From: an uncultured Bacilli bacterium
Lineage (GTDB): Bacteria > Bacillota_I > Bacilli_A > RFN20 > CAG-826
DNA length: 64,000 nt
NCBI GenBank assembly: GCA_944358895.1
Contig: CALVSB010000006.1
Location: 8,573 to 72,572 of the forward strand
Direction: 5' to 3'
The notes beneath the pieces were generated by a model. The model searched no databases. It worked only from the letters and a program-made list of their open reading frames with translations, and was not told the origin of the DNA. Below, in pieces: positions 703 through 42,333 of the stretch (its first letter is position 1; every line of letters starts with the position of its first letter). The position numbers and the translations under genes are program-made.

Positions 703-744
703 GAGCGGTCCGAGCGGCTTTTAAAAAAGAGTAACATTGGCCAG

Positions 745-1200
745 ATGGAATATTGGATATACGGAATTATTTATGCCGCGGTTTTAATCCCCCTTTTCTA
801 TCTGATCTGGAAGCTGATAAAAATAATCAAAGCCGACAACAAACTCGATGATTTGAATGGGCCTGAGGGTCTTGGCACAGACGATTTTCTCAAGATGAGA
901 AATTCAACTTTAAGGCATTCCCATCGCAGTCTTTATGGAAGGCAGAATGACTTCGCCGGGGTTTATGCCATCATTAATGAAACAAATGGCCGTTTTTATG
1001 TTGGGAAGTCGTCACATGTTCTCGATGCTGTAAACAAGCAAATTAATGGGTACGGCAATAGATATATTTATAGCGACAGGCAAAAAGGCCACTCATTTAA
1101 TATAAGAACGTTTCCGCTTTCTCATAGCGAATGCCTTACTTTGGAAACTTTAAAAAGAAAGAAGATTGCGGAGTACAAAACGTTTTTAAAGAGCTATTAG
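745..1200 (+). CDS. Membrane-anchored GIY-YIG domain protein
   Basis: N-terminal hydrophobic helix IYGIIYAAVLIPLFYLIWKLI. GIY-YIG-like blocks GVYAIINETNGRFYVGKS and a later LTLETLKRKKIAEY Glu block. AT-rich codon usage unlike the core genes. Confidence 0.55.
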   Translation: MEYWIYGIIYAAVLIPLFYLIWKLIKIIKADNKLDDLNGPEGLGTDDFLKMRNSTLRHSHRSLYGRQNDFAGVYAIINETNGRFYVGKSSHVLDAVNKQINGYGNRYIYSDRQKGHSFNIRTFPLSHSECLTLETLKRKKIAEYKTFLKSY

Positions 1201-1243
1201 AGGCGGGAATTGCGATAGATTTTGAAGAAGACTTATAAAAAGG

Positions 1244-1648
1244 CTAATTGTCCTCGACTACTTTGGCATTGCGGGCAAGCGCTAAAGCTTGAAGGCTATC
1301 GAGTTGGCGATGCTCTTTCGATTTTATTATTTCGCAATGATAAGGATTGGTGGCCGATGGTAGCGTGGCGATTATTGCTTTAACGTCCATGCATGTCTTG
1401 ACGTCTACTGCAAATATTAATCCGTGCAGACGCTTTTTCATGAAAGCAACTGATTCCTTGACTGAGCGATTGGCTTGGCGGTCAACCGAACAACCTCTCG
1501 GGTCAGTGAAAGCAGCTGAAGAAAGGCGTGGTTTCTCTCCTTCCATGCTAAGCCAAAGATTTGGTTTGACTTCAGGACTCCAAACCGCGCGGAAGAGCAA
1601 TTCCTGTTCGTCCGTGAAATTTTGATCAATTAGAGGTTTTTGCGGCAT
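1244..1648 (-). CDS. Hypothetical protein, 134 aa (last gene of overlapping three-gene cassette)
   Basis: Intact ORF in an AT-rich region. Its ATG lies 23 nt inside the upstream gene. No family recognised by eye. Confidence 0.5.
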   Translation of the reverse strand: MPQKPLIDQNFTDEQELLFRAVWSPEVKPNLWLSMEGEKPRLSSAAFTDPRGCSVDRQANRSVKESVAFMKKRLHGLIFAVDVKTCMDVKAIIATLPSATNPYHCEIIKSKEHRQLDSLQALALARNAKVVEDN

Positions 1649-2180
1649 TTCTGTTTAAAAAGTTGTTGATCGCTTCGTTGACTTCGATTTCGCTTCCGCG
1701 CTTTTCTCCGTTATCTCCGTCGGCATACGAATAGAATATTGAGTAATCGTCGTTGAATACGTTAATTTGGAGATAATCGCCATTGCTTTTTTCAAATTCA
1801 ATCTGAACTGACCCGTATGTTGTCGGGACGACAGTTGGCTGTCTCAATTGAAGAGTTTCTATAAGTTTTTTTGCCTTTTCTATTACTTCCTTCGAAAAAG
1901 GCACTGCTCCTTGGCCATCCCAATTGTCTTTGAAGTTCGACATTAGGTTCAGCCTTTTGGCATTGACGCTATATTTGTAGGCCTCGCGTTTCAACTTCTC
2001 TTTAAATTCATTGCAGATGGCTTCGGCATCAATCAGTGAGTAATTGATTATGAAGTCCAAAAGCTGCTTGCTGATGCTATTGACGCGCGGCTTAAAATGT
2101 TTGTTGCTTGTCGGATACGAGTAAAAACTTTTGGTACTGCCGTTGTATTGGGCGTTTATGTTCAGTACTTGCGTTCTCAT
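1626..2180 (-). CDS. Hypothetical protein, 184 aa
   Basis: Its ATG shares one base with the upstream stop (TAATG). The C-terminal block NWDGQGAVPFSKEVIEKAKKLIETL...GSVQIEFEKSNGDYLQINV recurs in uncharacterised phage/plasmid-type proteins as far as I recall; no firm family assignment. Confidence 0.55.
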   Translation of the reverse strand: MRTQVLNINAQYNGSTKSFYSYPTSNKHFKPRVNSISKQLLDFIINYSLIDAEAICNEFKEKLKREAYKYSVNAKRLNLMSNFKDNWDGQGAVPFSKEVIEKAKKLIETLQLRQPTVVPTTYGSVQIEFEKSNGDYLQINVFNDDYSIFYSYADGDNGEKRGSEIEVNEAINNFLNRNAAKTSN

Positions 2181-2593
2181 TACTTGCTCACCGGAATAAT
2201 AAGCGTTTGATCTACTTTTTCGCCGTCGATTACGGCCGAAAGAAGATAATCTCCTACTTCCGGCAATTCGACATTCCTAGCATCGACATTGAGGGTAAGC
2301 GTCTTTGCCTTTGCCAAATTACTCAATGGCTTTTGGCTTTCGCCATTGACCTTTACTTCCAAAGAAAACACTTCTTTGCCAGAGGGGGAATGAATATGAA
2401 GGACAATTTTCGAATCATCAGAAAGTTTCAGGTCATAAAGGCCCAGCCAAAAAGAAAAGCTGAAATTCGATGGTATGAATTTTGGATGTAAGGCAACCAT
2501 AGGATTAATAATGAAAGTGTCGTTTCTGCTTCCGTCGGTTTTAATTCCTTGGATCGTGCTTTCATACATTAGGAATGAAATAACTTTTGCCAT
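2180..2593 (-). CDS. Hypothetical protein, 137 aa
   Basis: Start placed at ATG 2593 (MAKVISFLMYEST), preceded by GGAGG 7 nt upstream, rather than the longest ORF start at 2683. Beta-rich sequence, no family recognised. Confidence 0.6.
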   Translation of the reverse strand: MAKVISFLMYESTIQGIKTDGSRNDTFIINPMVALHPKFIPSNFSFSFWLGLYDLKLSDDSKIVLHIHSPSGKEVFSLEVKVNGESQKPLSNLAKAKTLTLNVDARNVELPEVGDYLLSAVIDGEKVDQTLIIPVSK

Positions 2594-2708
2594 AGTTGTC
2601 CTCCTTTCCCATATTCTACCATATGGAAGAATAGCTAAGTGCCAACACCATAATAGGTAAATATATGGCTTTTTCGCCAGCAAAACCGGTACTTTTTAAA
2701 CTATCCTA

Positions 2709-3905
2709 TCAATCCCGATGATAGACATCGCGGCTGAAAATCTTATCTTTGACGTCGCTAAGATGGCTGGTTACCCGATTGGCGACAATGAGGTCGGCCT
2801 TCTCTTTGAAAGCCGTGAGGTCTTTTTCCAAGGCATTCCCTTCAAATGATTCCCCTTCGAGGGAAGGCTCAAAGATGATAGCCTTCACCCCTTTGGCATT
2901 GAGGCCTCTTAGGAGGTCAAGAGTTGAAGAAGAACGGAGACCGTCACTTCCGGCCTTGCTGCTCAAGCGGTAGAAACCAATCGTCTTCCCGGAGTGCTCC
3001 GCGGCATAGGCAAGGAGGCGGGAGAGAATCTTCTCCTTCCGCATCTCGTTGGATAAATCGACCGTCGGAATGAGCAGGGCGCCATCCTTAACAAGCGTCC
3101 GTCCCAACTCCTTGGTGTCTTTGCTCAGGCAATATCCGCCATAGCCAAAGGAGGGATTGTTGTAGTAGTCCCCGATCCTCGGATCGAGGGAGACGCCATG
3201 GATGATGGCTTTGCTCGATAGCCCATGTTTCAGGGCGAAGCCATCTAACTCATCGAAGAAAGCCACTCGCATGGCCAGATAGGCATTGGAGAAGAGCTTG
3301 ATCGCCTCGGCTTCCTCGGCTTTGACGAAAGCGATGTCGACTTTCTTGCCCTTGAGCGGCGATAGAAGCAGGAAGGCTGCCTCCTCGGCGGCCTTCTTCG
3401 TCTCCCCGTCATCCTTGAGCGTCCCAATGACGAGGCGAGAGGGGGAGAGGGTATCTTTCATCGCTTTGCCTTCCCGGAGGAATTCCGGAATGAAAAGAAG
3501 ATGGTCGAAATTGAGTTTCTCCTGAAGCTTTCGCGTGAAGCCGATCGGAAGGGTCGAGCGGACGAGGCACCAAGCGCTCGGATTCAATTCCTTGACGAGG
3601 CGGACGACGTTTTCTACCGACGAGGCATCGAGCCCTTTCTTGGCCGGGTCGAAATCGGTTGGGGTAGCAACGATGACGAAAGAAGCGTTCCCGTATCCTT
3701 CCTTCGGATCAGAGGTGGCTTTTAGAGATAGCCCTCCCTCATGGAAGGCAGCCTCGATATCTTCGTCTTTGATGGGCGAACGACCCCCATTGACGAGGTC
3801 GACCCTCGTTTCATTGATGTCGACGATCGTGACTTCGTTTTCCCTTGCGAGGAGGACGGCGTTGCTAAGCCCGACGTAACCGGCGCCGGCGACAGTGACT
3901 TTCAT
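2709..3905 (-). CDS. ugd: UDP-glucose 6-dehydrogenase
   Basis: N-terminal Rossmann VAGAGYVGL, catalytic Cys block GYGGYCLSKD and UDPG/GDP-mannose dehydrogenase family layout. Start set at MKVTVAGAGYVG (ATG 3905, GGGGGA SD); the longest ORF would start at 3968. Confidence 0.9.
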   Translation of the reverse strand: MKVTVAGAGYVGLSNAVLLARENEVTIVDINETRVDLVNGGRSPIKDEDIEAAFHEGGLSLKATSDPKEGYGNASFVIVATPTDFDPAKKGLDASSVENVVRLVKELNPSAWCLVRSTLPIGFTRKLQEKLNFDHLLFIPEFLREGKAMKDTLSPSRLVIGTLKDDGETKKAAEEAAFLLLSPLKGKKVDIAFVKAEEAEAIKLFSNAYLAMRVAFFDELDGFALKHGLSSKAIIHGVSLDPRIGDYYNNPSFGYGGYCLSKDTKELGRTLVKDGALLIPTVDLSNEMRKEKILSRLLAYAAEHSGKTIGFYRLSSKAGSDGLRSSSTLDLLRGLNAKGVKAIIFEPSLEGESFEGNALEKDLTAFKEKADLIVANRVTSHLSDVKDKIFSRDVYHRD

Positions 3906-3986
3906 TAAATCCCCCATGGCCATGCGGCTTCTTGGCGCTATCTTAACCGCCTCTATGTCTTCCATCAATGCGGCGGGATATGAGAA

Positions 3987-4010
3987 AAGGGCTCCCAGCT
4001 GGAAGCCCTT
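3987..4010 (-). terminator. Hairpin downstream of the cyclase-like gene (possible terminator)
   Basis: 7-bp stem AAGGGCT/AGCCCTT with a 10-nt loop, followed on the minus strand by TTTCTC. The T-tract is weak. Confidence 0.4.
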
Positions 4011-4025
4011 ATCGGCAGGCGAGGC

Positions 4026-4766
4026 TTACTTGACCTTCTTTTCGATCCAGGCGCCGTAATCGGCATCGAGGAGCGAGGCGTGGTAGCACCACATGTTGAG
4101 CTCTTTCGAGAACTTCCTGGTGAAGAACTCCCAGTAGCCTTGCTTGGCGTTGGCCGCGTAGTTCTTGATGTTGTCGAAGTAGAGGCGGTCGATGACGATT
4201 TCTCCGAAGTCGTCTTTTGCGGCTTGCCGGGCCATCTTCGCCGCGTCGAAGAGAGAATCGCCTACATAAGCCAGAGGGGCATCGCCTTCGCCCGTCTTGA
4301 TGACGAGGCATTCGGAGGTCGAGAGGCCGATCCCAATCTCGAAGGTGGCCATGTTCTTCTTGTCGAGGCTCCGCTGGAGCAACTCGTTGAAGGTGTTCAC
4401 GTAAATCGCGTCCTCGAGGAGGGAGACGAGATCTTCCTGCCCCGGGGTGTTGTAGTAGGCGATCATCTTGTCGCCTTCGATCGTGAGGCGGAGAAGCTTC
4501 TTGTTTCCGCGGAGGATGGCCGCGACCTCCCCATAAAAGGCCCGGACGATCCGTGCGACATCAAGCGGCTCCTCTTCCTTGAAAAGAGGGGCAGCGTTCC
4601 GAATGTCGATGACCATGGCGGCCATCCAGCCTTTGACGCCATTCTCCTTCAGGGCCGCTTCCTTGAGGTCGATGGCATTGACGGTGGCAATTTTGGTGGT
4701 GGAAGACAAGATGGCGTCGACTCTCTTTTTGGAGGCCGCGTAAATCTCCTCGTTGGTCATAGGCAC
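4026..4766 (-). CDS. Class III nucleotidyl cyclase-like protein (stand-alone catalytic-type domain)
   Basis: VIDIRNAAPLF, IEGDKMIAYY, IGIGLSTSECLVIKTG and YVGDSLFDAAKMARQ align by eye to the FxDIxGFT, GD, RIGIHxG and GDxVNxAxR blocks of class III cyclases. Both metal Asp are present; the canonical Asn and Arg of the last block are not conserved. Confidence 0.55.
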   Translation of the reverse strand: MPMTNEEIYAASKKRVDAILSSTTKIATVNAIDLKEAALKENGVKGWMAAMVIDIRNAAPLFKEEEPLDVARIVRAFYGEVAAILRGNKKLLRLTIEGDKMIAYYNTPGQEDLVSLLEDAIYVNTFNELLQRSLDKKNMATFEIGIGLSTSECLVIKTGEGDAPLAYVGDSLFDAAKMARQAAKDDFGEIVIDRLYFDNIKNYAANAKQGYWEFFTRKFSKELNMWCYHASLLDADYGAWIEKKVK

Positions 4767-5193
4767 TTCTCCTCTATTTATTTATCCTTATTCTAACGGC
4801 AACTTTTACTTTTCGTTACTATTTCAAGCAAATCGATGACATTTTTTCCGTTTTGTTACATGGTAAAGACAGTTGCGACGGGGAACTGGATGATGGAGAA
4901 AGCGTTTATAAACCATCGGGCAAACTCATTTTGCTAGCCCTCAGGAGGCTTCGCTATAGCTATCACCGGGTACTGTAGACGGTAAGGATAAAACCCATCG
5001 CGAAGCATGGAAAGACGAACGCTTTGATGGTTCGCGGCTCTTTACAAAATAGTTGTCATAAACGGTCGTCCTTCATTGAAATGAGGGATAGTCGCCGTTC
5101 TTCGATTCTGTTCGTCTTTCTCGTATTTTCAGATGATATCGGTTGTTTTTGCGGAATATTTGTGCAAATTCATCGAAATTCACCCAAAGTCTC

Positions 5194-5209
5194 AAAAAAC
5201 GGGGGATTT
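5194..5209 (+). repeat. Direct repeat copy 1: AAAAAA-CG-GGGGATTT
   Basis: 16-mer that recurs 76 nt downstream with only the two central bases different. Confidence 0.6.
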
Positions 5210-5269
5210 TCTATACACTGTTAATGTTTATATCAAGCCAACCTTGAAAATCAGAAATTAAAATCTTTG

Positions 5270-5285
5270 AAAAAATCGGGGATTT
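5270..5285 (+). repeat. Direct repeat copy 2: AAAAAA-TC-GGGGATTT
   Basis: Second copy of the 16-mer, in the AT-rich region upstream of the fibre operon. Confidence 0.6.
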
Positions 5286-5462
5286 GCAAGGATATTGATT
5301 TTAGGCCTCGACAAGGACTTTCTTTTGCTTGTAGAGCGCTACCGACAATGCAAGAATTGTGCCGGGCAGATGACCCAATAGGGAAGCCGAGCTACTCGTC
5401 ATGAGAGCGCCAGCGGCGGCCCGTTTGCCACCATCGTGCCCGAGCATTCAAAGGAGGTTAGC

Positions 5463-6278
5463 ATGAAAAAGCAAACCAAGCTCGAAAAGCGTCGCAAGAC
5501 TGTACTCGGAGCCGTTCTCGGATTCGGTGCGGTTGCGCTCCTCACCACGGCCACGGCAACCTGGATTATCGCGGTCAACAATTCAACGTTCGATGGTGAC
5601 ATTGGCGTGACGGTGGACACGGTTCAAAACAACTCTGTCAAACTTTCAGTTGTAATTGATAATAACGACAAAGGCCTCAATGTAGCGGAGAATGCCTCGA
5701 GCTTCGATCCCGAAGGACTAATCCAATACACGAGCTCGGATGACACTTTGGCCGTCGATGGTGGAAGCATCTCAATTCCGGACTTCAAGATCAAACTGTC
5801 AACAATCACTGTTGAGTATGGTTCGAATTTCTGCGGTGCTGATGAGAAACTCGTCCTTAATCTTTCACTAAAATATGGCGCGGGTTTGAAGAATAATGGT
5901 TCTAATCTTGCCAAGGAAGCTGACGACTTAATTGGAAAGCGCACTGATGACAGCCCCCTTGCTTTCACTGTTGCGTCTACTGGAGAGGGCGAACCCGATT
6001 CATGGACGTATGTGAAACTGGAAACGACTCAAATCGAGTTGAATACCGGCACTGGCGAAACCACCAAGACATCTACCACCGAAGGCAAGACTGTAACTTT
6101 CACTTGGGGTTCGTTCTTCGACAATAAGTCGCCAGCCACCTATTACAACGAGCTATTCCAAGCCGACACGGCTCAAGTTCAAGACGCTGCCAACATCGAA
6201 AGTGAGCTTGCTAATATGAAGAGCAGGCTGGAACAAGGCCTTGTGCTCACCTGTAGCGTTGCTGTTGTTGATGCCTAA
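5463..6278 (+). CDS. Secreted protein with SipW-cognate-type (TasA/camelysin-like) signal peptide
   Basis: Start at ATG 5463 with AAAGGAGG SD. KR-rich N-terminus plus a hydrophobic core ending ATATWIIAV, similar to the GGGTWAAF region of TasA. Paralog of the next gene, sharing a C-terminal FxWGxxFxxxxPxxY block. Confidence 0.5.
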   Translation: MKKQTKLEKRRKTVLGAVLGFGAVALLTTATATWIIAVNNSTFDGDIGVTVDTVQNNSVKLSVVIDNNDKGLNVAENASSFDPEGLIQYTSSDDTLAVDGGSISIPDFKIKLSTITVEYGSNFCGADEKLVLNLSLKYGAGLKNNGSNLAKEADDLIGKRTDDSPLAFTVASTGEGEPDSWTYVKLETTQIELNTGTGETTKTSTTEGKTVTFTWGSFFDNKSPATYYNELFQADTAQVQDAANIESELANMKSRLEQGLVLTCSVAVVDA

Positions 6279-6295
6279 CCTTCTTGGTACAAACT

Positions 6296-7063
6296 ATGAA
6301 AAGTAAAATCAAGGGTAACAAGAAGTTTGCCTATATTCTTCTCGGCGCGGGCGCCATTGCAATGACTGGAATCGCGTTCTCGGCCTGGATTATTACCGGC
6401 ACTATCACTCAAATTGATGTAGCCAATGTTTCTGTGACGGTTGGCGAGGTTAAGGACCAGCGGTTTGTTGCAACCGTACTCGAAAGTGGACGCGATTACG
6501 ATTTGAGTTTTGACTGCGAAGCTGGTGACGTTACCACACCGATAATTGCCGGAGATGGCGCTAAGGAGGATTTGTCTTTTGGCTTCACGGTCACCATCAC
6601 GAATGCTGTTGACACTTCAACCGGAAATCTTTCTACCGCGTTCACGGGGTACACGCTTGAAACGACTTATCCCGCGGACATCAATGACATTGTTTCAACA
6701 AACAAACTCATTGTTCTGCCCATCGATTCAGGCCGCGTTGAAATTGTGCCCGGTGAGATAACGCTTGCTTCATCTGTGAGGTATAACGCTGACGGAACGG
6801 TTAATAACGAGTCTTCGACATGGTCTGTGACTTACTCGGCCGAAGGCTCGACTCTCAAAGCCGTATTCGTGTTTAGTTTCTTGTGGGGCGACTATTTTAA
6901 CGGGCAAAATCCTGGGAAATATCAAGAATCGGAAATCACAATGCCGTCTGTCAGTGATATCGATGACTTGAAGGCTAAACTGAATCTTCTCAAGACCACT
7001 TTTGGAAGCGAAGGCAGTTTGGCTATGAAACTTACTCCTGAAGTTTCTGCCGGCCAAGATTGA
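6296..7063 (+). CDS. Secreted protein with SipW-cognate-type signal peptide (paralog of 5463..6278)
   Basis: N-terminus MKSKIKGNKKFAYILLGAGAIAMTGIAFSAWIITG and C-terminal FLWGDYFNGQNPGKY block. ATG 6296 preferred over TTG 6284. Confidence 0.5.
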   Translation: MKSKIKGNKKFAYILLGAGAIAMTGIAFSAWIITGTITQIDVANVSVTVGEVKDQRFVATVLESGRDYDLSFDCEAGDVTTPIIAGDGAKEDLSFGFTVTITNAVDTSTGNLSTAFTGYTLETTYPADINDIVSTNKLIVLPIDSGRVEIVPGEITLASSVRYNADGTVNNESSTWSVTYSAEGSTLKAVFVFSFLWGDYFNGQNPGKYQESEITMPSVSDIDDLKAKLNLLKTTFGSEGSLAMKLTPEVSAGQD

Positions 7064-7149
7064 GCTATCAGCAGTTTTTGACTGCTTTCAGTTCTGATGA
7101 TTGGCTTTGGCTTTACCGCTTTGCTTAAAATCGTCATAGAGCCATTCAG

Positions 7150-8127
7150 ATGTCCAGCATTGAAATCCTCTCGCTTATCGTGACGATCGTCGCTCTCGTG
7201 AGCCTCTCGTTCGTCTTCACCTTTCTCTTCCGTAACTATTTCCGCGGAATCATCGAAGCGGTGCAAAGCGGGGAAGAAGATGCTGAACTCATTTATGAAG
7301 AAGCGATGGGCAAGCGGGAAAAGACCGTTGCCCAGAAGATTCTCCACTATAGCGGCAAGGCCCTTTCCTACCTCGTCCTCCTTCTCTTGGTCGGGGTTTT
7401 CACCGGATCCCTTGTCTCACGGTTCATGGGGACCGAGATGAGCATAGGGGGCAATATACCCCTTGTCATTGTCTCGGGCTCGATGTCCTACAAAAACGAC
7501 GCCAACCAATATCTATATACAAACCATCTGGACGACCAGTTCCAGACGTACGACATCATCGTGGTCAACCCGACCGCGAGCCCCGACGACATCGAACTCT
7601 ACGACGTCATCGCTTTCTACTCTTCGGAAGGCACGGTCGTCGTTCACCGGGTCGTCGATATCGTCGATACCTCGGAAGGCAAGATGTTCGTCACCCGCGG
7701 GGATGCGAACAAGGCCAGCGACGCGAATGCCCTCTATGGCGACTACCTGCCTTACCAGCAAGTGGTAGGGGAATACCATGGAGTAAGGCTTCCAGCCGTC
7801 GGTGCCTTCGTCCTCTTCCTTCAATCGGGGGCCGGTGTCGTCTGCGTCATCTCCATCGTCTACTGCTTCGCCATCTTCGAGTTCTATCGCCGGAAGATGG
7901 ACCTCGCCATCGAGGAACGGACCGAGAAACTCCTCTCCTTCCTCACCATCGACGAAGCCGACGAGAATGCCGACGTCAACTTCACGGAAGTCCTGACCTA
8001 CAAGGGCAAGGACTATGTCCTCCCCAACGGGGAACCACCAACTTCTAAGGAGCCTGAAGCGGCTCCCTCCGCCGATAAAGGCGACAAAACAAATATCCAA
8101 GCTACATCCAAGGAGGATCAGCAATGA
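7150..8127 (+). CDS. Signal peptidase I, SipW/Sec11 (ER-archaeal) type, with extra N-terminal TM and acidic C-terminal tail
   Basis: Catalytic Ser box VSGSMSY, His box VVHRVV, TRGDANKASD box and a C-terminal TM helix. Confidence 0.8.
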   Translation: MSSIEILSLIVTIVALVSLSFVFTFLFRNYFRGIIEAVQSGEEDAELIYEEAMGKREKTVAQKILHYSGKALSYLVLLLLVGVFTGSLVSRFMGTEMSIGGNIPLVIVSGSMSYKNDANQYLYTNHLDDQFQTYDIIVVNPTASPDDIELYDVIAFYSSEGTVVVHRVVDIVDTSEGKMFVTRGDANKASDANALYGDYLPYQQVVGEYHGVRLPAVGAFVLFLQSGAGVVCVISIVYCFAIFEFYRRKMDLAIEERTEKLLSFLTIDEADENADVNFTEVLTYKGKDYVLPNGEPPTSKEPEAAPSADKGDKTNIQATSKEDQQ

Positions 8128-9932
8128 AAGGGCTCTTCAAACGCGTCGACGGGATCGCGCTTTCCCTCGTCTTCTTCTATTGCCTCATCGTCGGGTTCGT
8201 CGGGCTTTGCCTCGACCCCAATTCGACGATCGTGATGACCTCGAACCCCATCGCCTCCTTGGCGACGGCCTTAGGCTTTGCCAAGATCGAATCCCTTGGT
8301 ATCCCAAGCGGCATCATGCTGGCGATGATCTTGGTCTACACCTTCCTCTTTGCCCTCGCGGTGATCGTCGAAGTGCGTCTGGCCGAGAATGCGGACGAGA
8401 AACCGTATTCGGCCAAGTGGCTTTCCATCATGGCAGCTTCTTTCGTTGTTCTCTATGGCCTTGGGATCGGCATCGGTTCCGTTTCCCACCTGGCCTTCGA
8501 CGACGGGGTGAGCCTCGTCGCCCAGTCCCTCGCCTATTCGGGCGAAGCGATGCTCCTCGGCCTCGTCATTGCCATCGTCGCCTATCTAGCCATCTTCTTC
8601 CTCGTTCTCCTCGTCTATTGCATCGCCGCCAAGAGCAAACAACCGATCGAAGACGAAGTCTCGCCCGAAAGCGAGGAAGCCAAGAAACTCGAGGAACTCG
8701 AAGAGAAAGTCGACGAGGCCCTCGATGCCCACAATGGCGACGTCGCCTCTTCCTTTGCCGCCCACGGAAGCGGCGAAGGAGTCGGAACCGGCACCGGCCC
8801 GAGCAATCCCGACGACTTCTATGCCCTCGACCGGAACCGGGTCTTCCCCTCCATTTCGCGGGTCGATTCCCGGGCCGACCTCGTGGCTGTCAAGGAATTC
8901 AAGGACGACGAGGCCCTCGACCTCCGCACCTTGAGCGACGATTTCCGCGACTTCCTGGCCGGGAAGGAGGGCCTCTATTACGAAAAGACGGCCGTCCGCG
9001 CCTTCATCGCCGGCCTTTCGGCTTCCCGTCTCATCATTCTCCAAGGCCTTTCCGGCACCGGCAAGAGCTCGATAGCCCGTTACTTCTCGACCTTCATCGG
9101 CGAGAAGTCCTTCTTCGTGCCGGTCCAGACCACCTGGCGCGACCGGACCTCGATCCTCGGCTATTGGAACGACTTCAGCAAGACCTACAACGAGACCGAT
9201 TTCCTCGTTCGCCTCTACGAGGCCACTTACCAGTCGCAGGACATCAACGTCATGGTCCTCGACGAAATGAACATCGCCCGGATCGAGTATTACTTCGCCG
9301 ACTTCCTCTCGATCATGGAGTACCCGGTCGACGAACGCTACCTCAAGATCATGAACGTTCCTTACGATTTCGTGACTCCGGAGCATCTCCCCGACGGCAC
9401 CCTCAAGATCCCGGAGACGACCTGGTTCATCGGCACGGCCAACCGCGACGACTCGACCTACACGATCACCGACAAGGTCTATGACCGCTCGATCGTCATC
9501 TCCTTCAACGAGCGGAACGAGCCTTTTGCCGTCAAACGGATACCAGAACCGTATTCGATCTCCTATTCGAAGCTCATGTCTCTCTACGAAGCCGCCCAGA
9601 AAGACGAGGACAAGAAGATGAACAAGGCCGACTGGGCCAAGTTCCGGAACGTCCTCAACCGGGCCTACGAGGATTTCGAGCTCACCTTCGGCAACCGCGT
9701 CTACCACCAGATCGAACTCTTCGTTCCGGTCTTCGTCGCCTGCGGCGGCACCAAGGAAGAAGCCCTCGACTTCATGTTCGCCGAGAAGATCGCCAACAAG
9801 CTCGAAGGGCGCTACGAGGACTTCGTCAAGGATGCCCTCATTTCCCTCCGGGAAGAAATCGACAAAAACTACGGCAAGAACGGCTTCCCGCTCACCCGCG
9901 AGCGCCTCGCCCACTTGCTCCGGAGATTCTAA
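8124..9932 (+). CDS. Polytopic-membrane McrB-type AAA+ (COG1401-like) protein
   Basis: About five hydrophobic helices in the first ~190 aa, then an acidic linker, Walker A GLSGTGKSS, VMVLDEMNIARIEYYFADFLSIME and FIGTANRDDST. The ATG overlaps the peptidase stop (ATGA). Confidence 0.7.
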   Translation: MKGLFKRVDGIALSLVFFYCLIVGFVGLCLDPNSTIVMTSNPIASLATALGFAKIESLGIPSGIMLAMILVYTFLFALAVIVEVRLAENADEKPYSAKWLSIMAASFVVLYGLGIGIGSVSHLAFDDGVSLVAQSLAYSGEAMLLGLVIAIVAYLAIFFLVLLVYCIAAKSKQPIEDEVSPESEEAKKLEELEEKVDEALDAHNGDVASSFAAHGSGEGVGTGTGPSNPDDFYALDRNRVFPSISRVDSRADLVAVKEFKDDEALDLRTLSDDFRDFLAGKEGLYYEKTAVRAFIAGLSASRLIILQGLSGTGKSSIARYFSTFIGEKSFFVPVQTTWRDRTSILGYWNDFSKTYNETDFLVRLYEATYQSQDINVMVLDEMNIARIEYYFADFLSIMEYPVDERYLKIMNVPYDFVTPEHLPDGTLKIPETTWFIGTANRDDSTYTITDKVYDRSIVISFNERNEPFAVKRIPEPYSISYSKLMSLYEAAQKDEDKKMNKADWAKFRNVLNRAYEDFELTFGNRVYHQIELFVPVFVACGGTKEEALDFMFAEKIANKLEGRYEDFVKDALISLREEIDKNYGKNGFPLTRERLAHLLRRF

Positions 9933-9944
9933 TAGGGAGGAGCC

Positions 9945-11255
9945 ATGGAGGGCTTTGAGAGCCGGTTCGAAAAATCCCTAGCCGCCCTCATCGGGAAAAG
10001 GGCCGCCTATTCCTCCTTCAGCGAGGAAAAGCTTTCCTTTACCTACGTCGATCCTTCGCGGAGCGAAATATCCGAGCTCTCTTCCCTCCTCGATACTTTC
10101 ATGGGCATTGCCGGCTCCCCTCACCGCAAAAGCGAGCCCCACGAAATCGTCGAGCGGAGCGAGCTCGCTTCTTCTTTGACCCCCGACGAGTTTAGGAAGA
10201 CCTACCTCGACTCTTCCTTCTGGCGGCAGAAGAAAGATGGTTCCTTCTATCCGGAATACGTTTACGGTAGCGAGTACGACGACAACCTTCTAACCTACGA
10301 GAACAAGGCGGTTTATTTCATCTTCTGCCTCATCAAGGCCCGCCTCGAGGAACTTTCGACCTCGGTCAAAGAAGAAGGGAACTCCCTCGAGAAGCTTTAT
10401 CAGTCGCCTCTCGCCATCTTCCCGGATGAAGGCCCTCTTTATACGGCCGAGAAGCGGGGCAAAAGCGTCGCCGCCTACCTCCTCAAGAAGAAAGAGGACA
10501 GCTCCGGCGAACTTCTCCTCAAGGCTCTTAGCAAGGCCAAGCGCCTTCTTTCCTCCCAGTTTGCCCGGACGCTCATGAAGGCCAACCACGAAGTGATCCT
10601 GCCCCTCCAGCCGACGAACATCCTGATCCACGATTCCCGTTACAACCGCCTTTATCGTTACTACCTTTCCCATCTCAGCAAGGAAGGCAAAGGACGCCAC
10701 GATTCACCCTATGTCTATCTGGCCTACCGGCTTCTCCAGGAAATGACGAAGGCCGGCTACCGTTTGGCCCAGGAGCCCAATTTCAAATACAAAGACGGAA
10801 CCTTCACCATCACGGCCTTTACCTTCAGCCTCGACGGGTTTCTTTATCACTGCAAGATCGACGAAGACGTCCTTCGGATCGAGATTCTCTACCGCGGAGC
10901 CGTCTACCGGCGGGAAGTCTACCTCTACGACACCTTCCTTCCGACGGCCGATAACCGCGAAGTCCTCGCCCATCATTACGTCGTCTGCTTGAAGAATCTT
11001 TCCTCATCTTACGACGGAATCCTCGAGGTCGATCCTCTCAATAAAGAAGCGGTGTTCCCGCGCCTCTTCGCGGCCCTCTCCCTCGTCCTTCCCCTCGACG
11101 GGAAAGAACTCGACCATTGCCCCGTCTGCGGCTCCTCGGCCCTCGTTTCCTCCGCCAAGAAAGAGTTCCTTTGCCCCAAATGCGAATCGCTTACGGCCCT
11201 CCTCGGGGGCCGGGTCGATCCGGCGATCTGGATCGCTTCGATCAGGGGGAGATAG
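9945..11255 (+). CDS. Zinc-ribbon protein, possible McrC-like partner of the AAA+ protein
   Basis: GGGAGGAG SD, 12 nt after the AAA+ gene. LTYENKAVYF block reminiscent of the ExN motif region of McrC/DUF2357-type partners. C-terminal CPVC-x14-CPKC. No obvious PD-(D/E)xK motif by eye. Confidence 0.45.
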   Translation: MEGFESRFEKSLAALIGKRAAYSSFSEEKLSFTYVDPSRSEISELSSLLDTFMGIAGSPHRKSEPHEIVERSELASSLTPDEFRKTYLDSSFWRQKKDGSFYPEYVYGSEYDDNLLTYENKAVYFIFCLIKARLEELSTSVKEEGNSLEKLYQSPLAIFPDEGPLYTAEKRGKSVAAYLLKKKEDSSGELLLKALSKAKRLLSSQFARTLMKANHEVILPLQPTNILIHDSRYNRLYRYYLSHLSKEGKGRHDSPYVYLAYRLLQEMTKAGYRLAQEPNFKYKDGTFTITAFTFSLDGFLYHCKIDEDVLRIEILYRGAVYRREVYLYDTFLPTADNREVLAHHYVVCLKNLSSSYDGILEVDPLNKEAVFPRLFAALSLVLPLDGKELDHCPVCGSSALVSSAKKEFLCPKCESLTALLGGRVDPAIWIASIRGR

Positions 11256-11257: not shown

Positions 11258-12043
11258 ATGAAGATCAAGAAATCCCTCGAAATCGACGTCGACAAGATTG
11301 CGAACGACCTTTCGCAGAATGCCGTCTCCATCGTCGATGTCCATAAATCCTACGGAGACCACGAGGTCCTCAAGGGCGAGAACATCGAAGTCCGCCGCGG
11401 CGAGATTTTCGGGTTGCTTGGCAAAAACGGGGTCGGCAAGTCGACGACCATCGATTGCCTCATCGGGGCCAAGGATTTCGACCAAGGCGAGATCAAGATC
11501 TTCGGCCTTCCGATCGACGAATATCCCCTCGAGGTGAAAAGCCTTTATGGGTATGTGCCGTCCGAGCCGCTTCTCTACGAGCAGATGACCGGCTACGAGT
11601 ACCTTCAGTTCGTGGCCTCAGCCTACGGCCTCAGCCAAGAGGCCTTCGACAAGAACCTCGCCTTCCTCGACGGGGCCTTCCAGCTCGGGGAGGAAGCCCT
11701 TTCCCGCCCGATCGGCGGCTATTCGCACGGCATGAAGCAGAAGGAGGGGCTCATTGCCTCCCTTATCCACAACCCCAAGCTCTGGATTCTCGACGAGCCG
11801 ACGGTCGGCCTCGACGTCATGGCCTACGAAACCCTCCTCGACATGATGAAGCGCTACCGCGACAACGGGAATACCATCGTCTTGACCTCCCACAACATCG
11901 ACCTCATCGCCGACGTGACCGACCGGGTGGCCATCCTGAACGAAGGGAAGGTCGCGACCCTCATCGACTTCCACAAGGAGCCGCAGAAGCGGAAGGACCT
12001 GAAACTCGTCTTCTTCAAGGTCTACGGGGCCAAACTCTCATGA
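11258..12043 (+). CDS. ABC transporter ATP-binding protein
   Basis: Walker A GKNGVGKST, degenerate signature YSHGMKQK, Walker B LWILDEPTVGLD. Start ATG 11258 with GGGGGAG SD, 2 nt after the preceding stop; the track ORF start 11117 is an in-frame extension overlapping the previous gene. Confidence 0.9.
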   Translation: MKIKKSLEIDVDKIANDLSQNAVSIVDVHKSYGDHEVLKGENIEVRRGEIFGLLGKNGVGKSTTIDCLIGAKDFDQGEIKIFGLPIDEYPLEVKSLYGYVPSEPLLYEQMTGYEYLQFVASAYGLSQEAFDKNLAFLDGAFQLGEEALSRPIGGYSHGMKQKEGLIASLIHNPKLWILDEPTVGLDVMAYETLLDMMKRYRDNGNTIVLTSHNIDLIADVTDRVAILNEGKVATLIDFHKEPQKRKDLKLVFFKVYGAKLS

Positions 12044-13656
12044 GTCTTCATATCTTCATCAACGAGCTGAAGGGACTCCTCCCCAAGGGGAGCCTTCTTT
12101 CGCGCGTCTTGAAGATCGCTCTCCTACTTGTCGCCATTGCCTGTTTCCTCGGGCTCGAGGTTTATATCTACCTGGCTCTCGACGGCCAGCTCAAGGACTT
12201 CTCAAGCTTCGGCTCGGGCGATTTCCTGCTTCTCTTCCTTTTCGTCTATTTCTTCCTCTCGGTCCTCGCTTCCTTGCCTTTGGCCGACCGTTGCCTTTAC
12301 CGGAAGCTCGACGAGGAAATCCTCTCGCCCCTCCCGGTGAGCGACGACGACGTCATTCTCGGCAAGGGCCTCTATCTTTATGTCCGCCTCGTCGTCTCGA
12401 CCCTTTTCCTCGCGACGCCCCTTCTCATTGCTTACGGGACGACGTCGAACATGATGCCCCAATACTACGTGTTGGCCGTCCTTTATCCGTTTGTCGTTTC
12501 CTTTGTCGCGATCGGCCTTCTTCTGGCCCTTTTGCCTCTTTATCACCGGCTGGCCCGTTTCATGAAGGGCAAGTTCCTCCTTCAGCTCATCCTCGGGGCC
12601 GGGGTGACGGTCGCTCTCTGTTTCCTATACCAGTACGTCCTCGAGCTCTTCCTGAACATCGTCCAGGGGAGCCGCCTCGATTCCCTCTTCTCGGCCTCGT
12701 TCCTGAGCGGCCTCCACGAAGCCGCTCCGTGGTTCATCCCGGTCAGCAACTACTTTGCCCTCATGAGCGGTGGCGACAAGGTCATCAGTAATCTCCTCTA
12801 CCTCCTCGGGGCCATCCTTCTCATGGCGTTTCTTGGAATCTATCTCCTCACTTACCTCTATCGTTCCAACAAGGAACCGATGGCCGAAGAGAAGAAGAAA
12901 AAGAGAGAAAAGAAAGCCGCTTTGCGGGTGCTTTCGCCCTTCAAGGCCTTGCTCAAGAAAGAATTCATCCTCCTCTTCCGCAACGGAAGCTATCTCTTTT
13001 CCTTCTCCTCGCTCCTCTTCATGCAGCCTTTCCTTTCCTATGTCGTCATCGCTTCCCTCTCGAGGCTTCTCTATAGCAACCTTGCCATCTTCCTCAAGTA
13101 CTTCTCGGAACTTCCCAACGGCGTTTCCCTCCTCTTGCTCCTCCTTTTTGCCTCCATCGTTTCCTCGGGGGCAGCCGACGGCATCACCCGCGAGGAAAAG
13201 GGACGCCTCTTCCTCAAGACCTCGCCCCTCTCCCCTTTCAAGATGACCTTGGCGAAGCTTCTTTTGCCCCTTGGGGTTTCCCTTTTCTCGTTTTATCTCA
13301 GCGCGATCGTCCTCGTGGCGACCGGCGAGATCGGCGTTCCTCTTTTCTTCGTCGCCCTCGTGAGCGGCACCTTCCTTGTGGCCTCGGTCTCGAGCTACGG
13401 CCTTCTTGGGGATCTCGCTTCCTATTCGGCTAGGGTCAAGGGCAAAGGCTTCTTCGGATCGCTTACGGCTATTGTGTCGATCGCCTTCCCTTTGCTCATT
13501 GCCCTCGTCCATTTTGCCCTCATGTTCTATAGCGGCCTTCCTTCTTTTGTTATCTACCTCATCGAGGTGGCCTTCAGCTTCCTCCTTCTCCTTCCGCTTC
13601 CCTTCGTCCCGCGGCGGCTCGACCGCCTGTATCTTGAAATGGAGGCCGGCGTATGA
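12040..13656 (+). CDS. Multi-pass membrane protein, putative ABC exporter permease
   Basis: Start MSLHIFINELKG at ATG 12040, overlapping the ATPase stop (ATGA). Ten or more hydrophobic segments. The part of the track ORF upstream of 12040 is an Arg/Pro-rich artefact. Confidence 0.75.
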   Translation: MSLHIFINELKGLLPKGSLLSRVLKIALLLVAIACFLGLEVYIYLALDGQLKDFSSFGSGDFLLLFLFVYFFLSVLASLPLADRCLYRKLDEEILSPLPVSDDDVILGKGLYLYVRLVVSTLFLATPLLIAYGTTSNMMPQYYVLAVLYPFVVSFVAIGLLLALLPLYHRLARFMKGKFLLQLILGAGVTVALCFLYQYVLELFLNIVQGSRLDSLFSASFLSGLHEAAPWFIPVSNYFALMSGGDKVISNLLYLLGAILLMAFLGIYLLTYLYRSNKEPMAEEKKKKREKKAALRVLSPFKALLKKEFILLFRNGSYLFSFSSLLFMQPFLSYVVIASLSRLLYSNLAIFLKYFSELPNGVSLLLLLLFASIVSSGAADGITREEKGRLFLKTSPLSPFKMTLAKLLLPLGVSLFSFYLSAIVLVATGEIGVPLFFVALVSGTFLVASVSSYGLLGDLASYSARVKGKGFFGSLTAIVSIAFPLLIALVHFALMFYSGLPSFVIYLIEVAFSFLLLLPLPFVPRRLDRLYLEMEAGV

Positions 13657-16046
13657 AGAAAACCCTGCCCGTCCTCTTGCTGGCCCCCTTCGCCGTCGCG
13701 ATCCTCACTTTCGTGTCGATCACCCCGATCCGGAACCTCATCGCGGTCGATATCGACGGCATCTCCTGGGACTACCTCGACAGCGAAGGCTTCAAGGTCG
13801 GGGAATCCTACGAGCTCGAGGCTACCCCGATCTATGATGAGAACTTCACCTTGGCCGACGGGAACGACCTCGTCTGGACGAGCGCGGACGACGAAGTTGC
13901 TGCCATTAAAAGAAGCGGGGATGCCTTCTACCTCGATGCCATCCAGGAAGGCAGCTGCCGGATCACTTGCTCCAACGAGAAAGGGAGCGTCTCGCGGAAT
14001 TTCCTCGCGACCGTCTACGAAGACGGGGCCATCACGATTGTCGATGCCGGGACCCCGGCCTCGGGCGATAGCTTCGAAGACGTCCGGACCTACGGCCAGT
14101 TCGACTATTCCTACGAGGGCGGGACCGCGACGAAGGTCCAGGCGGCCATCACTTTGTCCTTTGGGATCTATAGCGACTATGACGACGACGAGGTCGTGCT
14201 CAAGGAAGCCTCGAGCAACCTTTCCTACGCGGACTCGACCTTGACCGTCAAGGCGCCGGGCGCCTCCTATGCGACCTTCGCCCTCAAGAAGATGCCCTTC
14301 GTTACCGCGACCTATTCCTTCGACGTCCTTGAAGGCGCGGTGAACGTCAAAAGCTACGACGACCTCATGCAGGCGACCAATCTTTCGGAAGAGGGGGAAA
14401 GGATCTGCCTCCAGCGGAATCTTCTTTCCCTCAAGTCAACCTACAAGAGCGATGGCGACGGCGGCTACGTCGACGAGTATTTGAACGCGAATACCCGCCT
14501 TTTCGGGCGTTACGACTTTGGGCGGGAGACGACCTCCTTCGACATCTATGCTTTCGACACCACCTATCCCCACGACTACCTCGACGATTACTTTGCCCAC
14601 AACCCCCCGACGCCAGGGCAAGAGGATTACCTCAAGGTGAGGACCGGCATCCATGTCCAAAAGGATTTCATCGGGAACGGCTTTGCCATCTCTTGCCAGG
14701 AGCTTTGCTACACCTACCACGGCGGCTACCTCGGGAACGGCCGCTGGAGCCCCTCGAGCGACGGGAGTAACGTCAGCGATTACTTCGAAGGGCCGCTTCC
14801 CTTCGTCTTCCTTGGGCCCTACGACCTCCAGGTCATCACTGCCTACGGGCAGGACAACTCGGCGATGTACGTCGAAGGGAACGACATCGAGATCTCTGAT
14901 CTTAAGCTGATGGCCGTCGACAACGTCGACGACTTGAACCTCCTCGAGTACGTCGGCTCGACGATGGACGTCCTCGGGGCAAACGTCACCGTGTCCGACA
15001 CCTACCTCCGGAACGGGCGGACGGCCCTCCGGGTCTACTCCTCCCCGAACTTCCTCCTCGACAATTGCTACCTCAACAACGCCCGCGAGTTCCTCCTTAA
15101 GGTCGGGAGCAACGAAGTGAGCCGCCCCGATCCTTCGACCCGGGTCGACGCCAGTTACGGCGGGGCACTCGCCCACGGAAGCCTCGAAGAGAATTTCGCC
15201 AGCGGCGGCGGGGCTGATCAGATTCTCGATGCCGCCGTCCGGAGTGGAGCCGACATCGCTTCGGCGATGGAAGCGATGAACGCCATCCAGTCCTCGCTCG
15301 ACGCCTCCGAGCCGCTCGATGCCTGGGACATGACGGTGAGGAATACCTATTTCGAGACGAGCGGCCTCTTCTCCATCGCCTTCGAAAGCGTCTTCAACGG
15401 CGGCTATCTCTATAGCGGCGTCCCTTCCTTCGTCTCCGAGCTCCTCGACACCTTCATGGGCATGATGAACCTCAAGTCGGTCCCGCCCGATCGCATCGGC
15501 GGTGTCTCCCGCCCGGTGAACATGACCATCGAGGGCGATACCCGCTTCTACGACTACAAAGACATCTCATCGATCGACGCTAGCTGCCTCATCTACGAGC
15601 AGATCTCGGCCATCCTGGCCGGAATCGGGAGCGACAGCGGGGACCTCACTTTCCCGATCGACAGCTATTTCCCGATCAAGAACCTGCTTCAGACCGCGGC
15701 CGAGCGGGTCGGGTCCAACTACCGGAACGAGGACGGCAACTTCGTCCTCGGGGCCATTGCTTTCTACGGCGGGGGCCTTAACCTATCGACAGTCGATGTC
15801 TCGGGGATGGACGTCTCCCCTCTCGGAGGAGAGCTGAGCGTCGATTACGCAACGGCTTGCCTTTCCGGCATCGGCCTCGCCGAAGGAAACGAGCTCTCGG
15901 CGTATTTGGCCCGCTGCGTGCCCCTGGCCGCCGGGACCAACCCCTTCCGCTTCGTCCTGAGCGGCGACCTCAGGCAAGTCGAGAAGCCTTACCTATTCGG
16001 CGAAGTGGCCGATATCAATGCGCTCAAGGCGCGAGGAGGAAACTAA
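13653..16046 (+). CDS. Large exported/anchored protein with Big_2-like Ig domain and probable beta-helix region
   Basis: N-terminal hydrophobic signal/anchor MKKTLPVLLLAPFAVAILTF. LVWTSADDEVAAIKRSGDAFYLDAIQEGSCRITCS matches Big_2 style. Repetitive N/D/G-rich turns are suggestive of a right-handed beta-helix. Start overlaps the previous stop (ATGA). Confidence 0.7.
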   Translation: MKKTLPVLLLAPFAVAILTFVSITPIRNLIAVDIDGISWDYLDSEGFKVGESYELEATPIYDENFTLADGNDLVWTSADDEVAAIKRSGDAFYLDAIQEGSCRITCSNEKGSVSRNFLATVYEDGAITIVDAGTPASGDSFEDVRTYGQFDYSYEGGTATKVQAAITLSFGIYSDYDDDEVVLKEASSNLSYADSTLTVKAPGASYATFALKKMPFVTATYSFDVLEGAVNVKSYDDLMQATNLSEEGERICLQRNLLSLKSTYKSDGDGGYVDEYLNANTRLFGRYDFGRETTSFDIYAFDTTYPHDYLDDYFAHNPPTPGQEDYLKVRTGIHVQKDFIGNGFAISCQELCYTYHGGYLGNGRWSPSSDGSNVSDYFEGPLPFVFLGPYDLQVITAYGQDNSAMYVEGNDIEISDLKLMAVDNVDDLNLLEYVGSTMDVLGANVTVSDTYLRNGRTALRVYSSPNFLLDNCYLNNAREFLLKVGSNEVSRPDPSTRVDASYGGALAHGSLEENFASGGGADQILDAAVRSGADIASAMEAMNAIQSSLDASEPLDAWDMTVRNTYFETSGLFSIAFESVFNGGYLYSGVPSFVSELLDTFMGMMNLKSVPPDRIGGVSRPVNMTIEGDTRFYDYKDISSIDASCLIYEQISAILAGIGSDSGDLTFPIDSYFPIKNLLQTAAERVGSNYRNEDGNFVLGAIAFYGGGLNLSTVDVSGMDVSPLGGELSVDYATACLSGIGLAEGNELSAYLARCVPLAAGTNPFRFVLSGDLRQVEKPYLFGEVADINALKARGGN

Positions 16047-16047
16047 G

Positions 16048-42294: not shown

Positions 42295-42307
42295 AGGAAG
42301 CAAGAAG

Positions 42308-42333
42308 CGGGTTTGGAAACAAACCCGTTTTTT
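42308..42333 (+). terminator. Rho-independent terminator between the two tRNAs
   Basis: CGGGTTT-GGAAAC-AAACCCG followed by T6. Confidence 0.85.

Follow-up and report, generated by a model that had tools for sequence, protein, structure and literature searches.

A membrane-anchored McrB-type GTPase-like protein and its McrC-type partner in a conserved secretion operon of uncultured gut Bacilli

The DNA studied here is a window of 64,000 nucleotides from an uncultured Bacilli bacterium (assembly GCA_944358895.1, contig CALVSB010000006.1, positions 8,573 to 72,572 of the forward strand), and all coordinates given for it are those of the window. Our subject is a gene for a 602-residue protein in which a transmembrane (TM) domain precedes a McrB-type AAA+ NTPase, together with the gene that follows it, whose 436-residue product is of McrC type. 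This pair, which we call TM-McrB and partner, lies in a run of genes on one strand that also encodes two paralogous secreted proteins ('A-type' and 'B-type'), a SipW-type signal peptidase, an ABC transporter ATP-binding protein, a polytopic permease, a large extracellular protein and a lipoprotein. The features are collected in Table 1. A preliminary description, made from the letters of the window, had singled out the 602-residue protein as a polytopic membrane motor of McrB type placed inside a secretion operon.

Table 1. Genes of the TM-McrB operon and the features of its two central proteins
Feature	Coordinates	Strand	Basis
Secreted 'A-type' protein, ~271 aa from ATG (open reading frame opens at GTG 5436)	5463..6278	+	N-terminal motif, family hidden Markov model (HMM)
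Secreted 'B-type' paralog, ~256 aa from ATG (open reading frame opens at TTG 6284)	6293..7063	+	Motif, family HMM
SipW/SEC11-type (endoplasmic reticulum/archaeal-type) signal peptidase I, 325 aa, three TM segments	7150..8127	+	NCBIfam, PDB, hydropathy
Membrane-anchored McrB-type (NxD branch) AAA+ GTPase-like protein, 602 aa	8124..9932	+	Motifs, alignment, model
4-TM N-terminal membrane domain, aa 1-172, predicted N-in/C-in	8124..8639	+	Hydropathy, AlphaFold2, phmmer
Variable linker, aa 173-236: acidic helix ~184-204, then Gly-rich disorder	8640..8831	+	Model, alignment
McrB-type AAA+ NTPase with C-terminal helical lid, aa 237-602	8832..9929	+	Pfam, NCBIfam, PDB sequence, Foldseek
McrC-type partner, 436 aa, DUF2357-like N-region and C4 zinc ribbon	9945..11255	+	Homolog alignment, hhalign, conservation
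DUF2357-like region of partner, aa ~45-274	10077..10766	+	Profile comparison
C4 zinc ribbon of partner, C392, C395, C410, C413	~11112..11189	+	Alignment
ABC transporter ATP-binding protein, 261 aa, DrrA/GldA-like ABC-2 type	11258..12043	+	Pfam, NCBIfam
Polytopic permease, 538 aa, ~12 TM	12040..13656	+	Hydropathy; homolog in locus L003 has Pfam 12TM_1 (PF09847)
Signal-anchored extracellular protein, 797 aa, N-terminal TM	13653..16046	+	Hydropathy, Beta_helix in homologs
Lipoprotein, 377 aa, lipobox L-T-S-C, likely start ATG 16048	16018..17151	+	Sequence, Pfam

The ATG of the TM-McrB open reading frame (ORF) shares the letters ATGA with the TGA of the peptidase ORF, as the preliminary description had stated, and a GGAGG is found 7-8 nt upstream of it. 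The motifs quoted in that description were all located in the ORF: Walker A GLSGTGKSS at residues 308-316, VMVLDEMNIARIEYYFADFLSIME at residues 377-400, FIGTANRDDST at residues 435-445, and the acidic linker EDEVSPESEEAKKLEELEEK. In an alignment of 67 full-length homologs, the quoted motifs were invariant or nearly so.

Kyte-Doolittle hydropathy gave four strong TM segments, at residues ~9-31, 60-84, 98-120 and 142-168. An AlphaFold2 model built from the 67-sequence alignment, with a mean predicted local distance difference test score (pLDDT) of 79.9, placed helices at residues 7-30, 60-89, 97-120 and 128-172 with pLDDT 85-95. Both methods predict with high confidence that the N-terminal helices span the membrane. 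The initial count of about five hydrophobic helices is to be lowered to four TM helices, the fifth being a short amphipathic helix (residues 42-49) in the model. The positive charges of the anchor (K2/K6/R7; R85...K98; K170/K172) lie at the N-terminus, in the loop 85-98 and after the fourth TM helix, so that, following the positive-inside rule, the anchor is predicted to have both ends inside and the NTPase to be cytoplasmic. An exhaustive phmmer search with the TM and linker region against 1.84 billion representatives returned only family members and fragments; the anchor therefore appears to be specific to the TM-McrB family, without detectable relatives elsewhere. Neither the N-terminal 248 residues nor the region formed by the fourth TM helix and the linker gave a DivIC/FtsB Pfam match (hmmscan, E up to 10), and no DNA-binding domain was found in the protein by Pfam or NCBIfam.

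In the NTPase core, Walker A (G308-S316) and Walker B (D380-E381) are followed by the sensor/signature N440-R-D442-D443. N440 and D442 are invariant, while position 443 is D and occasionally E, which makes the signature NxD(D/E) rather than the canonical NxxD. Escherichia coli McrB was the sole PDB sequence match of the protein (E = 4e-5, residues 283-455), McrB was the best NCBIfam model (E = 2e-5), and Pfam AAA_5 was matched at its threshold. These matches bear out the proposal that the AAA+ core is of McrB type. The accompanying statement that a DEMN...YF..FLS block marks McrB motors has to be narrowed: the block is not a mark of McrB in general, but is typical of the NxD sub-branch to which the CoCoNuT-like systems belong. 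To judge from its sequence, the NTPase is an NxD-branch McrB GTPase-like protein with intact catalytic motifs.

The strongest family match in any library was with the PADLOC candidate PDC-M26A (E = 3e-38), over profile positions 274-430 of 724. We did not place the protein in PDC-M26, because the match spans the NTPase core alone, and the partner and the neighbouring genes match no PADLOC model; a CoCoNuT-like Deinococcus protein scored about as well against PDC-M26A as the 602-residue protein did. Comparison of the structural model with the PDB by Foldseek returned NorQ, BrxL, MCM, MoxR, RavA and Thermococcus McrB, all near E = 1e-3. This fits the helix-2-insert clade of AAA+ proteins without separating McrB from MoxR, and the McrB assignment therefore rests on sequence and on the partner.

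The sequence of the partner, taken by itself, gave no Pfam, NCBIfam or PADLOC match. Among 31 homologs collected from related loci and aligned, 14 matched DUF2357, the N-terminal domain of McrC (best E = 2e-9). Comparison by hhalign set residues ~45-274 of the partner against the DUF2357 protein of a Deinococcus plasmid locus (Prob 95%, E = 3e-8) and against that of a gut phage-like contig (Prob 97%, E = 1e-11), with the motifs P-E-Y-V, Y-E-N and T-N-I-L-x-x-D-x-x-Y-N in common. Conservation is limited to the DUF2357 region and the four cysteines of the zinc ribbon, and the mean column identity of residues 246-385 is 0.14. No PD-(D/E)xK set was found in the partner, as there is no invariant D, E or K outside the DUF2357 region and no match with a nuclease family. 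The AlphaFold2 model of the partner, from an 8-sequence alignment, was poor (pLDDT 51), and its long helices at residues 118-152 and 186-213 are of low confidence. The alignment thus presents a plug of McrC type in which no nuclease can be recognised. That the pair consists of a McrB-type NTPase and a McrC-type DUF2357 partner is a conclusion in which we have high confidence.

The peptidase gene that overlaps TM-McrB matched the NCBIfam models TIGR02228 (E = 1e-15) and SipW (E = 3e-19, below the equivalog cutoff), and its best PDB match was SEC11A. The catalytic triad Ser111, His166 and Asp185 is invariant among 75 homologs, and the enzyme looks active. Its N-terminus bears one TM segment more than that of SipW. 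The topology puts the loop 30-67 and the C-terminal tail 248-325 in the cytoplasm; these parts hold the conserved residues G41, D44, R257 and L261, and they could contact the GTPase complex.

The A-type and B-type proteins (A/B proteins) share an N-terminus made of a K/R-rich n-region, a hydrophobic region of ~16 residues and a conserved G-F-A↓(T/A)-W-(I/V)-(I/L/V) site, which in the B-type protein is IAFSA↓WII. Small residues at -3 and -1 led us to read it as a type I signal peptidase site. The mature N-terminus that is predicted to follow is hydrophobic and conserved, and the N-terminal 45 columns are the best conserved of the family (0.47 versus 0.33). Both types also carry a C-terminal F-x-W-G...NP..Y motif. 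The A/B proteins are presumed to be substrates of the SipW-type peptidase. They matched no family in Pfam, NCBIfam or PDB sequences; no TasA, camelysin or SipW-cognate model of Pfam or NCBIfam recognised them, and a profile of 28 A/B proteins found no TasA among PDB sequences. A match with Natrinema PilA2 was borderline (E = 0.018) and driven largely by the hydrophobic segment, and it was rejected as evidence.

Downstream of the pair, the ~800-residue protein probably contains a right-handed beta-helix region, since, of 23 homologs, 5 matched Beta_helix (PF13229; best E = 3e-5). The lipoprotein carries a C-terminal Listeria-Bacteroides repeat (Flg_new, PF09479, E = 1e-6). PDB sequence searches with these two proteins gave nothing usable. 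A scan of the region for promoters and terminators was uninformative, as promoter-like sites were no more frequent than expected by chance and none of the terminator-like sites could be assigned to an end of the operon.

Full-length homologs of TM-McrB form more than 5000 clusters at 90% identity in public data, are ~600-615 residues long and are 45-50% identical; among GTDB species representatives, at least 582 have a gene for a relative. Gene neighbourhoods were compared in a set of 83 loci, composed of the best 80 loci and three from contig look-ups. A conserved order emerged: 1-8 A/B paralogs, peptidase, TM-McrB, partner, ABC ATPase, permease, ~800-residue protein, ~370-residue lipoprotein. 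About 80 species-representative genomes have this order, and it persists where identity has fallen to 37%. The partner was present at 82 of the 83 loci, the ABC ATPase at 80, the peptidase at 79, the permease at 77, the ~800-residue protein at 74 and the ~370-residue lipoprotein at 65, so that the linkage to sipW-like, partner and ABC genes foreseen in the preliminary description is indeed kept among homologs. At 76 loci the family HMM detected A/B genes immediately before the peptidase gene, as 1-8 tandem copies and in most cases two. Median intergenic distances at six junctions ranged from -1 to 4.5 bp, with 2 bp between peptidase and TM-McrB, 4.5 bp between TM-McrB and partner, and 1 bp between partner and ABC ATPase; this last junction is the tightest, 89% of loci falling within 30 bp. 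Given the more than 5000 homolog clusters and the conserved neighbourhood, the finding lies far beyond chance. We conclude that the TM-McrB operon is real, non-random and biologically unusual.

The proteins of the operon diverge together with the GTPase domain across loci (r = 0.62-0.87, on identity to the window proteins). Over 80 loci, the identity of the GTPase domain is 44-83%, with a median of 51%, and that of the ABC ATPase has a median of 53%; faster evolution is seen in the TM domain (median 30%), the linker (26%) and the partner (27%). A search of 72,556 plasmids and 50,697 phage records gave no match that was full-length and TM-bearing. The flanks of the locus vary between genomes, and those of the window are housekeeping genes, with UDP-glucose dehydrogenase on the upstream side and phosphofructokinase and phosphoglycerate mutase (gpmA) on the downstream side. 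The pair is an integral, co-diverging part of the operon, which otherwise encodes membrane and secreted proteins only. We are evenly divided on the stronger statement that the pair belongs permanently to an operon for surface-protein secretion and assembly in uncultured gut Bacilli, as opposed to a free-standing restriction system.

The 80 best loci come from metagenome-assembled genomes (MAGs) labelled as uncultured Bacilli or Firmicutes, Candidatus Onthovivens, Enteromonas, 'Staphylococcus sp. CAG:324', Acholeplasmatales and Anaeroplasmataceae, with some labelled Christensenellaceae or Clostridia. Several of these names we take to belong to the GTDB order RF39.

Some loci depart from this arrangement. 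In at least eight lineages, an extra and shorter A/B member (~205-215 residues) lies just past the last gene of the operon (copies at L018 19532..20179, L025 20237..20857, L048 19106..19738 and L058 19318..19944); none was detected in the first 22 kb of the window. Two further loci, L069 (8116..9297 and 9404..11098) and L077 (9431..12486), are from MAGs named 'Bacillales bacterium UBA6449/UBA6380'. At L069 the TM-McrB/partner pair is preceded by a gene for a 393-residue protein whose TM domain is paralogous to the McrB-like anchor (BLASTP E = 1e-5), and which itself sits after a 536-residue surface protein and a collagen-like ORF of GxY repeats.

Elsewhere in the window, a short way past gpmA come the genes of two adjacent and apparently paralogous lipoproteins (19185..20294 and 20395..21333, lipoboxes LASC and LFAC), for which Pfam gave no match. 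The stretch that precedes the operon holds several small genes that are poorly annotated or not annotated at all (16..702, 745..1200, 1626..2683 on the minus strand and 4026..4766 on the minus strand), among them a DUF4143 C-terminal fragment cut by the start of the window, a weak DUF6941 match and a 246-residue protein of no family. This stretch could be a variable or accessory region. Tandem tRNA-Ile(GAT) and tRNA-Val(CAC) genes occupy 42218..42499, and a tRNA-Thr(TGT) gene follows 5 kb further on (47577..47651); no other Rfam family reached its gathering score in the 64 kb. Three ORFs of 203-489 residues, rich in Arg, Pro and Gly, overlap the genes of interest in other frames (8015..9484 on the plus strand, 8586..9914 and 7513..8124 on the minus strand). 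They were dismissed as genes because such ORFs are typical artefacts of coding DNA with 56% GC.

The preliminary description was aware of no described system with this architecture. On this point it has to be corrected, as one such system has been named: Bell et al. (eLife 2024, PMC11090510) introduce CoCoPALM in one paragraph of their section 7, where its analysis is deferred. In that section, the name CoCoPALM is given to McrB GTPases that carry fused TM/coiled-coil regions and whose genes are associated with those of the signal-peptidase family; an NxD motif, usually followed by E or a second D, serves there as the mark of a major branch of McrB GTPases, as yet uncharacterised. By this description, the system of the window is probably of the CoCoPALM kind. 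We filed it there because the NxD motif, the relatedness to CoCoNuT and the association with a signal peptidase are all found. The correspondence extends to the D/E that follows the motif, to the closeness to CoCoNuT GTPases, to the size of the clade, to an N-terminal fusion with TM and helical segments, and to a McrC homolog without an obvious nuclease.

Differences are also apparent. The fusion of section 7 is FtsB-like, with one TM segment and a coiled coil, whereas here there are four TM helices and a helix of ~20 residues (184-204); and the coiled coils reported there are usually on both the McrB and the McrC homologs. The CoCoPALM paragraph is silent on an ABC transporter, a permease, a beta-helix protein, a lipoprotein, tandem paralogs and lineage-wide vertical conservation. 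Relative to that paragraph, what is new here is the full conserved operon, the 1-8 substrate paralogs and the motif at their cleavage site, the partner with its zinc ribbon and no recognisable nuclease, the topology of four TM helices and a conservation that is vertically coherent across the lineage. We found no CoCoPALM, FtsB or peptidase entries in the supplementary files of PMC11090510, and no later paper that mentions CoCoPALM by name. Literature searches for PDC-M26, for SipW in RF39 and for SipW in Mollicutes gave no relevant paper.

Outside the family, the nearest relatives of the GTPase, found by tblastn in plasmid and phage records, belong to CoCoNuT-like loci (CnuB/CnuC; L084, L085, L086) and are 33-40% identical over residues ~240-587 only. 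The motifs GxSGTGKSS, VLDEMN.ARIEYYF.DFL, GTANxD(D/E)ST and FGNR are common to both sides, and the CoCoNuT partner also combines DUF2357 with C-terminal zinc ribbons. Unlike TM-McrB, these GTPases are soluble proteins of ~800 residues with long N-terminal coiled coils (~420-480 residues). Their DUF2357 partners, encoded by the following gene, have 630-705 residues, so that the partner of the window is 200-270 residues shorter. Large genes for UPF1-like helicases precede them, with nucleases alongside; the loci are on plasmids or phage-like contigs and are predicted to serve in defence.

One of these loci, L086 (MT835511.1, 'Bacteriophage sp.', human faeces, 46..8334), is a complete CoCoNuT-like locus of four genes on a gut phage-like contig. 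It encodes a UPF1-like helicase of 726 residues, a 535-residue protein, a coiled-coil NxD McrB of 824 residues (GTANQDEST) and a DUF2357 protein of 689 residues with several zinc ribbons. Similar loci are on Deinococcus and Polaromonas plasmids (L084, L085).

With canonical McrBC (E. coli and Thermococcus gammatolerans; PDB 6hz4, 6ut6, 6ut3), the pair shares the helix-2-insert AAA+ core, the McrB motifs and a DUF2357 McrC-type gene in next position. It is not a canonical McrBC system, because the NxxD motif, the DNA-reader domain and the nuclease are all missing: NxD stands in place of NxxD, a 4-TM anchor in place of the DNA reader, and the McrC homolog has no conserved PD-(D/E)xK. The pair is, besides, inside a secretion operon. 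The tapA-sipW-tasA operon of Bacillus subtilis and the archaeal TasA-like/SipW loci offer a different resemblance, namely an endoplasmic reticulum-type peptidase beside paralogous presumed substrates with a conserved cleavage-site motif. The substrates of the window, however, have no detectable TasA or camelysin similarity, and the tasA operon has no NTPase, McrC-like protein or ABC transporter. Type IV filament machines (PilB/PilC/PilD) are an analogy of function only, consisting of a hexameric NTPase on a membrane platform, a leader peptidase and paralogous subunits whose most conserved part, as in the A/B proteins, is the N-terminal hydrophobic region. No component is homologous: the AAA+ protein is McrB-type and not PilB, and the peptidase is a serine signal peptidase I and not an aspartyl prepilin peptidase. 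As to MoxR-VWA pairs, MoxR-class proteins are among the fold matches, but the sequence matches are McrB-specific and the partner has no VWA domain.

What might such a pair do? We propose that it is the motor and partner of a membrane-anchored, nuclease-less McrBC-type complex co-opted for envelope or surface-protein assembly, and not for defence; on present evidence the balance for and against this proposal is even. The McrBC structures (Niu et al. 2020), as they are summarised in PMC11090510, provide the model for a hexamer with DUF2357 in its pore. By this analogy, the NTPase would form a hexamer and gather 24 TM helices, and the DUF2357 domain of the partner would plug the central pore and stimulate GTP hydrolysis (PDB 6ut6, 7vsr). 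Lacking both a DNA-binding N-domain and a nuclease, the complex may pass the work of its GTPase through the linker to the membrane domain. A GTPase cycle would then act by way of the linker and the TM helices on neighbouring membrane proteins, that is, the peptidase and/or the ABC transporter, and would drive or gate the extraction of the A/B subunits, their cleavage by SipW and their assembly into a surface structure, the ABC transporter possibly serving as extractor.

A more specific form of this proposal would have the exapted, nuclease-less McrBC ring, anchored by its 24 TM helices, as the motor of a new surface-filament or surface-layer machine, which together with the SipW-type peptidase and the ABC extractor would draw the 1-8 paralogous subunits from the membrane and polymerise them. 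We put it forward tentatively and think it rather doubtful. The same reserve applies to the wider picture of a non-homologous analogue of type IV filament machinery that would be a core, vertically inherited trait of RF39-like gut bacteria.

Several observations weigh against assembly as the role of the pair. At L069 and L077 it has no adjacent peptidase or ABC gene, and is therefore separable from the remainder of the operon, at least in position. The identification with CoCoPALM relies on a description and not on accessions, and no FtsB/DivIC profile match supports it. The fibre is deduced from context alone, because no resemblance of the A/B proteins to TasA, camelysin, pilins or SipW-cognate signal models could be detected. 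With so poor a model of the partner, its residues 246-385 may still hold an inactivated or divergent nuclease fold, and its zinc ribbon may bind nucleic acid. No cultured organism carries the operon. Lastly, the closest relatives of the GTPase, CoCoNuT and PDC-M26A, are predicted defence systems.

This last point leads to the explanation by defence, in which the system would be a CoCoNuT-like protection against phages or plasmids. Its membrane domain would act as effector, by membrane damage or abortive infection, or would sense disturbance of the envelope or of pili, and its linkage to secretion genes would mean that it guards a phage receptor structure. The score of the GTPase core against PDC-M26A (E = 3e-38), the plasmid and phage-like location of the nearest soluble relatives, the clear McrBC ancestry and a zinc ribbon common to CoCoNuT McrC homologs all speak for it. 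TM effectors are, moreover, frequent in defence systems. CoCoPALM itself appears within a census of type IV restriction in section 7 of Bell et al. (PMC11090510). Yet defence islands do not typically keep one gene order through ~80 species down to 37% identity, with co-divergence; the conservation of the GTPase domain is on a par with that of the ABC ATPase (51% versus 53%); no full-length copy was seen among the plasmid and phage records; the partner matches no PADLOC model; there is neither a nuclease nor another recognisable effector; and the flanking genes are housekeeping genes. We consider defence unlikely. A plain defence island was ranked below the assembly role on account of the synteny, the co-divergence and the absence of the system from collections of mobile elements. 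The preliminary description had offered both a defence module and a motor for surface-protein handling; the comparative evidence leans towards the latter. Its broader idea of a non-canonical role has gained from the nuclease-less partner, the lack of a full-length plasmid or phage match and the co-divergence with the operon.

Alternatively, the protein might be a MoxR-like regulatory or chaperone GTPase, serving the ABC transporter or the maturation and insertion of the beta-helix protein and the lipoprotein, with no filament involved and the A/B proteins being ordinary secreted proteins. Foldseek does rank NorQ, CHU_0153, RavA and CbbQ as near as McrB, the junction of the partner with the ABC gene is the tightest of all (median 1 bp, 89% within 30 bp), and the A/B proteins have no homology to filament proteins. 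The sequence matches, however, are specific to McrB and not to MoxR, and the partner has DUF2357 and a zinc ribbon where a VWA domain would be expected. Moreover, a dedicated substrate set accounts better for the gene overlap with the peptidase and for the 1-8 tandem paralogs, whose processed N-terminus is conserved, and we regard the MoxR-like role as improbable. A place in cell division or sporulation, with the TM and helix region being FtsB/DivIC-like and the operon building a spore-surface or septum-associated structure, is far less probable still. In its favour, SipW and TasA of B. subtilis first became known in connection with spores. A further point is that sporulation has been predicted for RF39 (PMC10868615), and FtsB homology of the N-terminal fusion of CoCoPALM is reported in section 7 of PMC11090510. 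But no DivIC/FtsB Pfam match appeared here even at E = 10, the anchor has four TM helices and not one, the conserved cluster has no division or sporulation genes, and it also occurs in MAGs labelled Acholeplasmatales or Anaeroplasmataceae.

McrBC is the textbook example of a GTP-driven restriction motor. If the assembly role proposed here is true, an immune motor without DNA reader or nuclease would have been recruited to cell-envelope work across hundreds of species. If the system is one of defence instead, it would be a defence system wired to a secretion apparatus. The host lineage, gut Bacilli of RF39/Acholeplasmatales type, is abundant in human and animal guts and has small genomes, and its surface biology is barely characterised; a conserved surface operon of 8 to 12 genes is a handle on how these bacteria interact with their surroundings.

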